Positions 254-31,073 of a stretch of DNA of 64,000 bases are shown piece by piece. The stretch's first letter is position 1. The number at the start of each line of letters is the position of its first letter. The stretch is from Escherichia coli (GTDB taxonomy: Bacteria; Pseudomonadota; Gammaproteobacteria; Enterobacterales; Enterobacteriaceae): the NCBI RefSeq assembly GCF_003334305.1, contig NZ_QOWS01000001.1. One strand, given 5' to 3'. The notes beneath the pieces are model-generated. The model was not told the DNA's origin. It saw only the letters and a list, made by a program, of their open reading frames with translations, and did not search any database. The position numbers and the translations under genes were made by a program.

Positions 254-294
254 GTGATCTTCCTTAATGCTATGAGTAATTAAGGCGAACGCTA

Positions 295-428
295 AATATA
301 CTCGTCATACTTCAAGTTGCATGTGCTGCGTCTGCGTTCGCTCACCCCAGTCACTTACTTATGTAAGCTCCTGGGGACTCACTCACTTGTCGCCTTCCTG
401 CAACTCGAATTATTTAGAGTATAAATAT
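295..428. repeat. ERIC / IRU (enterobacterial repetitive intergenic consensus) element, full length ~130 bp imperfect palindrome
   Basis: Contains both classic ERIC primer cores: atgtaagctcctgggga.tcac and, as reverse complement, aagtaagtgactggggtgagcg; palindromic ends tatactc...gagtata. Confidence 0.8.
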
Positions 429-8050: not shown

Positions 8051-8629
8051 TTACGCCTGATGATCCGGCTTTTTCTTCCCGCGCCGTTTCAGCCACCAGC
8101 GCACGCCCACCACCAGAACCACGACCAGAATCAACCAGACCCAGTGCTTCAAATGCTGGTCGAGATTGTGCAACCACGGCGCAATCACCTGACCACCAGC
8201 GTAACCAATAGTGGTAAAAATCAACGCCCAGGCAAATGCGCCGAGAATATTCAGCGGCAGAAAGATTTTCGGCGGCAGCTGGCTGGCACCAATCAGCGTC
8301 GGGCCAATCACCCGAAAGCCATACATAAAGCGCGTACCAATGACAAACAGATACGGATGGCGTTGGATAAGTTTCTGCGCCCGCTCAATTTTATCCTGAT
8401 GTTTCGAGAAACGGCGTAACAGCTTGCCGCCAAACCGCCGCCCGCACAGATAAAGCACCTGGTCGCCAATCATGCCGCCAAGCGCCACAGAAAGTACCAC
8501 CAGCGGGAACTTTAATAGCCCCTGATGTGCCGCAACGCCTCCCAGCAAAGTCACGGTTTCACCTTCCGCCAGGCTACCGATCACCAGCGCGGCATAACCA
8601 TATTGTGAGATGAGTGTATTGAGATCCAT
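8051..8629 (-). CDS. yohD: DedA-family inner-membrane protein YohD
   Basis: 192-aa membrane ORF from MDLNTLISQYGYAAL; recognised. Confidence 0.85.
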   Translation of the reverse strand: MDLNTLISQYGYAALVIGSLAEGETVTLLGGVAAHQGLLKFPLVVLSVALGGMIGDQVLYLCGRRFGGKLLRRFSKHQDKIERAQKLIQRHPYLFVIGTRFMYGFRVIGPTLIGASQLPPKIFLPLNILGAFAWALIFTTIGYAGGQVIAPWLHNLDQHLKHWVWLILVVVLVVGVRWWLKRRGKKKPDHQA

Positions 8630-28745: not shown

Positions 28746-29834
28746 TCACGGCAGGCGGTGGCGGGCTTGATAATAAGCCTGCCAGTGAGCTTCTTTATGT
28801 GTGGCGACTCGTTGTTCGAAGTAACGGCGCAGACGAGCGCGATCTTCTTCGTTATCTTTGACGATGGTTCCGGCAATGCAGTCCACCAGGTCGGCTGGCT
28901 CACCTGCGCGATTCGCTAAAAACCAGGCGCGGACGCCTACGGCGTGGGCCACGTTCACGGCTTCAGCGGTGGACATAATCGCTGTTAGTGTATCCATTGA
29001 CGTTTTCTTTTCGCCGTTGGCACGCAGATCGCGGAAGGTGCGGACCAGTAACTCCAGTACCGCGTCAGGCACTTTATGCGGAATACCGCTATGGGCCAGC
29101 AAACGCGCCGAAGCACTGGCGACAAGCTCCAGCTCCTGGGCGAAATCCATAATCGGAAAGACAGTTTCAAAATCGAAGCGACGCTTTAGCGCAGCACTCA
29201 TTTCATTGACGCCGCGATCTCGGGTATTGGCAGTGGCAATAATATTAAAGCCTTCTCGCGCATAGAGCTGACTGGCTTCACCAGTGAGTTCCGGCACCGT
29301 CATCACCCTGTCAGAAAGCATACCTAACAGACAGTCTTGCACTTCCAGCGGTGTACGCGTTATCTCTTCAAAACGGACGATTTTGCCGTCGCGCATTCCC
29401 TGGTAAAGCGGGGCAGGGACCAGCGCTTCCGTTGATGGACCATGATTGATAAGCAGGGCGTAGTTCCAGCCGTACTTGATTTGATCTTCGGTAGTAGATG
29501 CGCCGCCCTGGATGGTTAACCCGGCATCGCCGCTAATAGCGGTTGCCAGTAATTCAGACAGGAGAGATTTTGCGGTGCCAGGTTCCCCCACCAACATCAA
29601 ACCGCGCCCGGTGGCAAGAGTGACTAACATGCGTTCGACAGCGGAGGGACTAATCACCACTTTACGGCTAATATTTTGCGCGCTATCGCCAAGGATAAAA
29701 GCACGGGCCGCAGGCAAACTTAACTGCCAACCGGGCGGGCAAGGAGCGTTATCATTTTGTTTTAATTTTGCCAGTTCATCGGCGTATAACACAGCAGCAG
29801 GCGGACGCTGCAGATGATTATTCTGCGGTGACAT
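28746..29834 (-). CDS. yehL: MoxR-type AAA+ ATPase YehL
   Basis: Walker A GEPGTAKS, Walker B-like IVRFEEITR; 362 aa from MSPQNNHLQRPP. Confidence 0.88.
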   Translation of the reverse strand: MSPQNNHLQRPPAAVLYADELAKLKQNDNAPCPPGWQLSLPAARAFILGDSAQNISRKVVISPSAVERMLVTLATGRGLMLVGEPGTAKSLLSELLATAISGDAGLTIQGGASTTEDQIKYGWNYALLINHGPSTEALVPAPLYQGMRDGKIVRFEEITRTPLEVQDCLLGMLSDRVMTVPELTGEASQLYAREGFNIIATANTRDRGVNEMSAALKRRFDFETVFPIMDFAQELELVASASARLLAHSGIPHKVPDAVLELLVRTFRDLRANGEKKTSMDTLTAIMSTAEAVNVAHAVGVRAWFLANRAGEPADLVDCIAGTIVKDNEEDRARLRRYFEQRVATHKEAHWQAYYQARHRLP

Positions 29835-29941
29835 ATATTCATCCCTGAAATGTATTAATGAAATAAACGATATTTTACGCGCAATAAATGTTTGGCGCAT
29901 TAGTTGTTTGAGCAAAAAATATCTGGAAAGCAGATCGCAGT

Positions 29942-30028
29942 AAATAAAAAAACCTGCTGGTGAGGCAGGTTCTTTTATTTACTATTTTCAGGCCTAACAC
30001 CACAGCCTGTGCAACATCGTGTTCCAAC
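29942..30028 (-). ncRNA. orzP: Orz-like antisense sRNA (type I antitoxin), copy proximal to yehL; approximate ends
   Basis: Minus-strand sigma70 promoter (-35 ttgcaa 30058..30063, -10 tataat = plus attata 30035..30040); intrinsic terminator 29951..29971 plus U-run; 5' end complementary to zor leader at 30175..30194. Confidence 0.55.
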
Positions 30029-30034
30029 GAACGA

Positions 30035-30085
30035 ATTATAACCACGGCTGGACCCCGTTGCAATTAAGATAATGAGATTTATAAT
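30035..30085. promoter_or_regulatory. Divergent overlapping sigma70 promoters sharing one palindromic -35 hexamer (TTGCAA)
   Basis: ttgcaa at 30058..30063 is its own reverse complement; plus-strand -10 tataat 30080..30085 (16-nt spacer); minus-strand -10 at 30035..30040 (17-nt spacer). Confidence 0.55.
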
Positions 30086-30266
30086 CCAGACCGTTGGGAC
30101 GTTGCGCCGGATCGAACCTATTTCAAGTCCTGGCTACCGGACGGGGGGTGCTGCAGGTGGTGCCCTGATCCGGAGTGCAACATCGTGGTCCAACATACGT
30201 AAACCAGTATCGACAGGCAGTGTAAGGGTAAGGTGCTGGTGTTGCGCTCCTTAATAAGGAGAGCGG

Positions 30267-30356
30267 ATGGACTCGCTGACACAAAAGTTAACCGTGCTCA
30301 TTGCTGTACTGGAGCTATTAGTGGCTCTGTTACGGTTGATTGATTTGTTGAAGTAA
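30267..30356 (+). CDS. zorP: 29-aa hydrophobic type I toxin peptide, Zor family (MDSLTQKLTVLIAVLELLVALLRLIDLLK)
   Basis: ATG 8 nt after SD ggagag; single TM helix with C-terminal Lys; predicted leader ~174 nt from TSS ~30093; O versus P naming inferred from position. Confidence 0.6.
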   Translation: MDSLTQKLTVLIAVLELLVALLRLIDLLK

Positions 30357-30376
30357 CGGGCAAATTGAAACGCATC

Positions 30377-30404
30377 TAAGGGGGAAAACCGCTTCCCCCT
30401 TTAA
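30377..30404 (+). terminator. Intrinsic terminator of toxin mRNA (copy 1)
   Basis: aaggggga aaaccgc ttccccctt hairpin followed by tt/aat. Confidence 0.6.
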
Positions 30405-30551
30405 TAAAATGATTACTGTTTTTATTAATTCATCATATAACTCATTTTTATTTATAAATTCATCGATTTTATATTCAACGCACCATTTGACCGGGATGTG
30501 AATATTTATGTTGGGCTATTGGCAAAAAATATCTGGAAAGTAGATCGCAGA

Positions 30552-30636
30552 AAATAAAAAAACCTGCTGGTGAGGCAGGTTCTTTTATTTACTACAGTGA
30601 CGCTAACTTGCTGATTGTGCAACATTTCGTACCAAC
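30552..30636 (-). ncRNA. orzO: Orz-like antisense sRNA (type I antitoxin), copy proximal to yehK; approximate ends
   Basis: Same architecture as copy 1: -35 ttgcaa 30666..30671, minus -10 at 30643..30648, terminator 30561..30581; 5' end complementary to leader 30785..30802. Confidence 0.55.
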
Positions 30637-30642
30637 GAATAA

Positions 30643-30693
30643 ATTATAACCATATCCACACTCCATTGCAATTCAGTGAGTGAGATTTATAAT
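30643..30693. promoter_or_regulatory. Divergent overlapping sigma70 promoters sharing a palindromic -35 (copy 2)
   Basis: ttgcaa 30666..30671; plus -10 tataat 30688..30693; minus -10 at 30643..30648. Confidence 0.55.
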
Positions 30694-30874
30694 CCTGCCC
30701 GTTGGGAGGTTGTGCCGGATCGGACCAATTTTAAGTCCTGGCTGCCGGACGGGTGGTGCCGCAGGCGGTGCCCTGATCCGGAGAGCAACGTTTCGTACCA
30801 ACATACGTAAACCAGTATCAACAGGCAGTGTAAGGGTAAGGTGCTGGTGTTGCGCTCCTTAATAAGGAGAGCGG

Positions 30875-30964
30875 ATGGACACGCTGACACAAAAGTTAAC
30901 CGTGCTCATTGCCGTACTGGAGTTATTAGTGGCTCTGTTACGGTTGATTGATTTGTTGAAGTAA
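30875..30964 (+). CDS. zorO: 29-aa hydrophobic type I toxin peptide, Zor family (MDTLTQKLTVLIAVLELLVALLRLIDLLK)
   Basis: Differs from copy 1 peptide by one residue (T3 vs S3); SD ggagag; hand-translated, below ORF-track cut-off. Confidence 0.6.
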   Translation: MDTLTQKLTVLIAVLELLVALLRLIDLLK

Positions 30965-30984
30965 CGGGCAAATTGAAACGCATC

Positions 30985-31012
30985 TAAGGGGGAATACCGT
31001 TTCCCCCTTTAA
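30985..31012 (+). terminator. Intrinsic terminator of toxin mRNA (copy 2)
   Basis: aaggggga ataccgt ttccccctt hairpin. Confidence 0.6.
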
Positions 31013-31017
31013 GAAAG

Positions 31018-31073
31018 CTATACTCGTCATACTTCAAGTTGCATGTGCTGCGACTTTAATTATCTAGAGTATA
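31018..31073. repeat. Short ERIC variant (both ERIC termini joined, central part absent)
   Basis: ctatactcgtcatacttcaagttgcatgtgctgcg matches the left end of the ERIC at 295..428, and aattatctagagtata matches its right end. Confidence 0.65.

Follow-up and report, generated by a model that had tools for sequence, protein, structure and literature searches.

[quoted passage not shown]

What kind of element is formed by the two tandem repeats that lie between yehL and yehK in this E. coli chromosome, and do they represent complete modules or the remains of such modules? A first-pass annotation of the 64-kb window (the whole stretch of DNA that was analyzed), made without database searches, had proposed tandem Zor/Orz-like type I toxin-antitoxin modules at this position. 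Matches in Rfam and UniProt, together with identity to the O157:H7 sequences, point beyond this likeness to zor-orz itself. Judged by its sequence features, the region from 29912 to 31009 is almost certainly the chromosomal E. coli zor-orz locus, consisting of the modules zorP-orzP and zorO-orzO in tandem. This locus is already known, having been published and experimentally studied (Fozo 2010; Wen 2014, 2017; mSystems 2024). In strain EDL933, the repeat family was placed "between yehI and yehL" and described as encoding ∼85-nt small RNAs (sRNAs), long leaders, and toxic 29-amino-acid (aa) products (Fozo 2010, PMC2887945).

The repeats were recovered as two direct-repeat families with a start-to-start spacing of 608 to 610 bp. 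They define two units of ∼490 bp each, unit 1 (zorP-orzP) at 29912-30401 and unit 2 (zorO-orzO) at 30522-31009. This repetition is far beyond chance and agrees with the two tandem units of ∼500 bp described at the outset, although their identity, then put at more than 90%, proved to be slightly lower, amounting to 435/491 positions (88.6%) in a gapped global alignment and to 88.3% over 497 nt by BLAST. Between the units lies a nonrepeated, AT-rich spacer of ∼120 bp (30402-30521), which stays outside the repeat alignment and recurs in O157:H7 as well as in a further strain with two copies. When the region was searched by BLAST against the whole 64-kb window, neither additional copies of the units nor sequences related to them turned up. 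The sole outside match in the window was a 37-nt ERIC end at 297-333, and an ERIC fragment (31019-31073) adjoins unit 2.

According to the annotated syntenic loci of K-12 and O157:H7, the minus-strand genes yehL and yehK adjoin unit 1 on the left and unit 2 on the right, respectively; in the annotation of both strains the locus is flanked by yehL and, at its other end, by yehK-yehI. By this synteny, the units occupy the yehI/yehK-yehL intergenic position that serves as one of the criteria of the Zor-Orz family.

Each unit contains on its plus strand a short open reading frame (ORF) for a hydrophobic 29-aa peptide, exactly as quoted in the first-pass annotation. The zorP ORF (30267..30356) encodes MDSLTQKLTVLIAVLELLVALLRLIDLLK and the zorO ORF (30875..30964) encodes MDTLTQKLTVLIAVLELLVALLRLIDLLK. 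The unit 1 peptide (MDSLTQKL...) is an exact match to UniProt entry ZORP_ECO57, "Small toxic protein ZorP," and the unit 2 peptide (MDTLTQKL...) to ZORO_ECO57, "Small toxic protein ZorO"; in addition, section 4.3 of PMC6669753 gives a ZorO sequence identical to the latter peptide. The two differ by the T3S variant of ZorP relative to ZorO, as described previously (PMC11264685), and both are strongly hydrophobic, with a GRAVY value of ∼1.4 (1.39 for zorP) and 62% L, I, V, or A residues. For Z3290 (ZorP), toxicity has been shown experimentally, as has the expression of the zorP-associated sRNA (Fozo 2010, PMC2887945). A scan of both 29-aa peptides against NCBIfam matched no family, which reflects a gap in that library and is no evidence against membership.

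The proposal that each peptide gene is followed by an intrinsic terminator holds only in part. Inverted repeats with a strong, G/C-rich stem of 9 bp do lie downstream of the ORFs on the plus strand, at 30378..30401 for zorP and at 30986..31009 for zorO (-14.6 and -17.8 kcal/mol, respectively, for 56-nt 3'-end segments), and are putative terminators. However, the U tracts that follow them are poor (UUUAAUAAAA for zorP and UUUAAGAAAG for zorO), and a consensus terminator scan did not call either of these hairpins 3' of the ORFs. Since the U tracts are weak and the scan made no call, we infer the 3' ends of the zor mRNAs rather than assign them.

On the minus strand, each unit would give rise to a divergent RNA bounded by a terminator, in line with the earlier description. 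The orzP gene (29946..30028) would yield an sRNA of ∼83 nt with its +1 at 30028, and the orzO gene (30556..30636) an sRNA of ∼81 nt with its +1 at 30636. Both have their own predicted promoter and, at the 3' end, a 12-bp hairpin with U7 directly behind it. Both also match the Rfam model RF02083 (OrzO-P) on the minus strand over model positions 1-76 of 76, orzP with 99.9 bits (E = 1.1e-16, 29946-30021) and orzO with 88.8 bits (E = 2.4e-14, 30556-30629), the gathering score of the model being 60. Weak Rfam matches to STnc370, the Thr leader, the Trp leader, and isrH all stayed below the respective gathering scores and coincided with either the Orz terminator hairpin or the ERIC fragment; we treat them as chance or terminator-driven matches.

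The two sRNAs of the family are told apart by the V1 discriminator at sRNA positions +9..+11, which reads GAA in OrzO and ACG in OrzP (PMC3919570). The 5' end of orzP, GUUGGAACACG, carries the published ACG at these positions, and that of orzO, GUUGGUACGAA, the published GAA. Because of this difference in V1, unit 1 was assigned as zorP-orzP and unit 2 as zorO-orzO. Transcripts of ∼85 nt have been detected for the sRNAs in EDL933 (PMC2887945); in the present strain, the RNAs of both strands are predicted from promoters and terminators.

A promoter scan yielded four predicted sigma-70-like promoters, each with 10/12 matches, which stand back to back within each unit. In both units, a single palindromic -35 hexamer, TTGCAA, would be common to the two directions of transcription, with a TATAAT -10 hexamer on either side. 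The divergent promoter block of unit 1 (30035..30085) comprises the orzP -10 at 30040-30035 on the minus strand, the shared -35 at 30058-30063, and the zorP -10 at 30080-30085. That of unit 2 (30643..30693) comprises the orzO -10 at 30648-30643 on the minus strand, the shared -35 at 30666-30671, and the zorO -10 at 30688-30693. Read toward zor, the predicted promoters consist of TTGCAA, 16 nt, and TATAAT and end at 30085 and 30693. All of these hexamers agree with those listed in Table 3 of PMC11264685.

With the zor transcription starts placed at 30093 (zorP, 7 nt past the -10 hexamer) and 30701 (zorO), the leader from the inferred +1 to the ATG measures 174 nt in both units (30093..30266 and 30701..30874, plus strand), the length that had been estimated before. 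The ribosome binding site (RBS), AAGGAG, occupies 30256-30261 in zorP, and that of zorO is found at 30864-30869; in leader coordinates this is +164..+169, equal to the published position +164-169 (PMC5397157). The "exposed after processing" (EAP) region, +73..+102, corresponds to 30165-30194 in zorP and to 30773-30802 in zorO. In the minimum free energy folds of both zor mRNAs, about +1..+22 is paired with +74..+102 (for zorP, +1..+21 with +75..+102), and the Shine-Dalgarno sequence lies inside a CUCCUU/AAGGAG hairpin.

The EAP region is also where the sRNAs are predicted to bind. Pairing sites in this family are expected to comprise at least 15 continuous or 17 discontinuous pairs (PMC3919570, PMC11264685), and both units contain such a site within +73..+102 of the 174-nt leader. 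OrzP pairs with the zorP leader at 19/20 positions, 13 of them continuous, between +83 and +102 (30175-30194), and OrzO +1..+18 forms 18 contiguous pairs, including one U:G, with +85..+102 of the zorO leader (30785-30802). The first 18 to 20 nt of each sRNA are consequently complementary to the leader up to +102, as the first-pass annotation had anticipated for the sRNA 5' end. The OrzO target is located 72 to 92 nt upstream of the ATG, as reported by Fozo 2010 (PMC2887945). The targets carry bases that compensate for V1, UUC in zorO and CGU in zorP, and in the noncognate combinations of Orz and zor the pairing is broken at V1, in the middle of the duplex. Since 19 of 20 positions are complementary, OrzP probably represses zorP; among the zor-orz papers cited here, we found no direct test of this repression.

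The two units did not diverge evenly along their length. The 5' half of the sRNA shows the lowest identity between them, 61%, followed by the promoter block with 75% and leader positions +1..+102 with 85%. Values of 96 to 99% are reached in what remains of the leader, in the ORF, at the 3' end, and in the sRNA terminator. The differences thus concentrate in the segments that interact, which fits the published proposal that variation in these segments prevents cross-talk (PMC11264685).

Taken together, all features of the Zor-Orz family that can be assessed in a sequence were found here, namely, the peptide, the match to the Orz model, the divergent promoters, the leader pairing, V1, and the chromosomal position. 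The RefSeq/PGAP records contain no feature for zorO, zorP, orzO, or orzP. Because of this lack of annotation and of an NCBIfam model, family membership rests on Rfam, on the UniProt names, and on the published papers.

We then compared the region with complete E. coli genomes. Over 1221 bp, two chromosomes match it with 100% identity, and O157:H7 chromosomes do so with 99.3%. The comparison with the O157:H7 zor and orz genes, which the first-pass annotation had suggested as a check, was made with strain F3113, whose chromosome served as a stand-in for that of EDL933. Only 9/1221 positions differ from F3113, each by a single-nucleotide change or an indel, and they fall in the flanks, the spacer, promoter-proximal positions, one synonymous codon, and position +120 of the zorO leader. 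None lies in the Orz RNAs, the pairing sites, or other known functional elements, and none changes a peptide. [quoted passage not shown] ZorO and ZorP, OrzO and OrzP, and the target sites are identical in the O157:H7 locus, and the promoters, the 174-nt leader, and the RBS position are the same.

K-12 presents a different picture. Its yehL-yehK spacer of 306 bp aligns with 97.9% identity to window positions 29800-30126 and then jumps to ∼31055, the right-hand end of the deletion falling in the ERIC fragment. K-12 has therefore kept orzP together with the shared promoter block and ∼30 nt at the start of the zorP leader. The sequence from ∼30127 to 31054 is missing, and with it the remainder of zorP, the spacer, and the zorO-orzO unit in its entirety. 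The locus had been described as absent from K-12; this is right for the two-unit form but not for the retained orzP, promoter, and start of the zorP leader. The OrzPmg locus of K-12 MG1655 (mSystems 2024) is allelic to unit 1, and both the expression of the orphan sRNA OrzPmg in MG1655 and the orz-only state have been published (PMC11264685).

The same comparison bears on how the locus came to differ between strains. The modules had been described as inserted between yehK and yehL, a view that finds no support, since K-12 is a deletion derivative and the locus analyzed here therefore need not be an insertion. Indeed, a two-unit query was covered to at least 80% at one place in 3390 of 5426 complete E. 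coli genomes, and single-unit and orz-only forms accounted for most of the remaining genomes. The survey published in 2024 likewise distinguished one-unit, two-unit, and orz-only forms, with the two-unit form present in 42% of 2,212 assemblies and ∼30% of E. coli assemblies being orz-only (PMC11264685).

The persistence of orzP in strains that have lost its target raises the question of whether silencing of zor is the main task of the Orz RNAs at all, or whether they act chiefly elsewhere, for example by regulating other mRNAs in trans. Strains of the orz-only type have conserved the orphan orzP along with intact promoters, and MG1655 expresses it (PMC11264685); K-12 retains it at 97.9% identity without a zor target. 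However, no other Orz target is known, the authors of the survey state that there is no evidence in the literature for a type I antitoxin acting beyond repression of its toxin (PMC11264685), and the retention of orzP could be neutral, as an antitoxin would be harmless once the toxin is lost. We thus consider such a main role quite unlikely, and it would in any case be compatible with the assignment of the locus to zor-orz.

The orz-only state also suggests that the present locus might itself be a decayed remnant without a working toxin, of the kind represented by ∼30% of E. coli assemblies (PMC11264685) and exemplified by the very deletion seen in K-12. This is very improbable here, given that both units are complete, with promoters, 174-nt leaders, RBS, lesion-free 29-aa ORFs, and 3' hairpins, and that their functional parts are identical to the characterized O157:H7 alleles. 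That the units are a noncoding repeat of the ERIC/REP/MITE type with incidental small ORFs and antisense complementarity is scarcely tenable: the region is intergenic and in parts AT-rich, and a true ERIC fragment (31019-31073) lies directly beside unit 2, but the units match only each other within the 64-kb window, match the Rfam antitoxin model over its full length (E = 1e-16), encode peptides identical to experimentally toxic proteins, and have promoters, RBS, and pairing sites intact at the published positions. A mobile or repetitive element class for the units was accordingly rejected on the basis of the Rfam match, the O157:H7 comparison, and the UniProt matches.

Assignment to zor-orz makes it possible to draw on the mechanism worked out for the family. 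Its molecular steps were shown for zorO-orzO of O157:H7 EDL933, and we transfer them to the present locus on the grounds that it shares identical sRNAs, target sites, and peptides with O157:H7 F3113. Overproduced ZorO stops growth, and OrzO rescues the cells in a manner that requires RNase III but not Hfq; the 5' end of OrzO alone suffices for rescue, and V1 determines specificity, OrzP being unable to repress zorO (PMC3919570). [quoted passage not shown] ZorO resides in the inner membrane; it perturbs both the potential and the integrity of the membrane and gives rise to hydroxyl radicals (PMC6669753). For a single chromosomal copy, no aminoglycoside phenotype is reported (PMC9860968).

[quoted passage not shown] Transcription of each zor gene from its sigma-70 promoter would produce an mRNA of ∼310 nt, of which 174 nt form the leader. 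As long as this leader has its full length, its initial ∼22 nt would pair with +74..+102 and the Shine-Dalgarno sequence would be held in a small hairpin, so that translation would be poor. Removal of the first 28 nt would then free the EAP region at +73..+102. Binding of Orz at the leader would block translation and lead to RNase III-dependent decay without a need for Hfq, and the bases at +9..+11 (GAA in OrzO and ACG in OrzP), together with the compensating changes in the targets, would keep the two modules from regulating each other. Peptide made in excess would insert into the inner membrane and cause depolarization, damage, and a stop of growth.

Both Orz and zor mRNA 5' ends have the form GUUGG...GUUGC, and their promoters are mirror images of each other around one palindromic -35. 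Moreover, in the predicted fold the first ∼22 nt of the zor mRNA occupy +74..+102, the same segment that is bound by Orz. This predicted fold, together with the published probing, suggests a functional overlap between Orz and the mRNA 5' end. One tentative reading is that Orz acts as a stand-in, in trans, for the 5' end of the zor mRNA and restores the closed, poorly translated state after processing; the sRNA gene may then have originated when the toxin promoter and 5' end were duplicated in inverted orientation. On the whole we regard this reading as rather unlikely. An ancient inverted duplication of the orz and zor arms around the -35 gave scores that were reached by 175, 43, 452, and 11 of 2000 shuffles and were not significant; we thus claim no common origin of the two arms, and the evolutionary part of the stand-in reading is weak.

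Outside the family, the closest mechanistic analogue is tisB-istR-1 of E. coli, the likeness being one of mechanism, with no sequence similarity claimed. Expression of tisB is under SOS control, and zor is not known to be regulated in this way. Both systems combine a 29-aa membrane toxin with a long structured leader. In both, translation is promoted by an upstream single-stranded region that becomes accessible only through processing of the 5' end; a divergent sRNA pairs there, at a long distance from the RBS, and RNase III takes part (PMC5397157). They differ in that the full-length zorO mRNA can be translated whereas the +1 tisAB mRNA is inert (PMC5397157), and zor-orz, unlike tisB-istR-1, is tandemly duplicated, with pairs that are insulated from each other.

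As a discovery, the locus described here has little value, since work from 2010 onward has already given it its name, mapped it, and dissected it, down to its variation in copy number and the orphan antitoxin of K-12. It does, however, expose an annotation gap, with four genes absent from RefSeq/PGAP and peptides that lack an NCBIfam model. It also serves as a positive control, in which an unannotated type I toxin-antitoxin pair was recovered from raw sequence without any searches.

A palindromic −35 hexamer, TTGCAA, occurs once in each unit (30058-30063 in zorP-orzP and 30666-30671 in zorO-orzO) and is common to the divergent zor and orz promoters. Because it is common to both, the toxin and antitoxin genes of each unit may depend on a single RNA polymerase contact, either as competitors or under joint regulation. 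The zor mRNA and the Orz RNA both carry 5′ ends of the form GUUGG...GUUGC; when tested against shuffles, the sequence similarity between the promoter-proximal zor and orz arms was not significant. In the predicted fold of both zor mRNAs (leader segments 30093-30194 and 30701-30802), the first ∼22 nt pair with positions +74 to +102, and the segment bound by Orz is thus also the predicted partner of the mRNA 5′ end.

The Orz terminator hairpins (29951-29971 in unit 1, zorP-orzP, and 30561-30581 in unit 2, zorO-orzO) are nearly palindromic and are flanked on both sides by T-rich runs, and for this reason the terminator scan calls them on the plus strand too. The hairpin of unit 2 could also keep zorP transcription from running on into orzO-zorO. 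Within the AT-rich inter-unit spacer is a 30-amino-acid ATG open reading frame, MITVFINSSYNSFLFINSSILYSTHHLTGM (30409-30501), which is probably a chance product of AT-rich DNA; we saw no sign of a gene. Sequence equivalent to this spacer is also the site of an IS1A insertion (1194-1794 of the L004 locus) in the single-unit strain E. coli 158274-3, where it lies ∼50 bp past the zor hairpin.

The interval from the zorO 3′ hairpin to the stop codon of yehK contains a 55-bp "mini-ERIC" (31019-31073), which consists of both ends of an ERIC/IRU intergenic repeat without its middle. The Rfam isrH model matches it weakly, at 20.8 bits, which is under the gathering score. A full-length ERIC/IRU element, including the ERIC1R primer site ATGTAAGCTCCTGGGGA(C)TCAC, is found elsewhere in the window (291-425), and its left end matches the mini-ERIC at 36 of 37 nt (31019-31055). 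The mini-ERIC is present in O157:H7; the single-unit strain of locus L005 does not carry it, and there the zor hairpin directly abuts the 3′ end of yehK.

The right endpoint of the K-12 deletion falls within the ERIC right arm of this mini-ERIC. In K-12, the yehL-yehK spacer (2486-2791 of the DH1 locus; 8291-8596 of the MG1655 locus) retains a zor leader stub, GGATCGGACCAATTT, which is closer to the zorO-type than to the zorP-type leader of the window, although the adjoining sRNA is nevertheless OrzP. One possibility is that the K-12 remnant descends from a locus with a different or recombinant zor allele.
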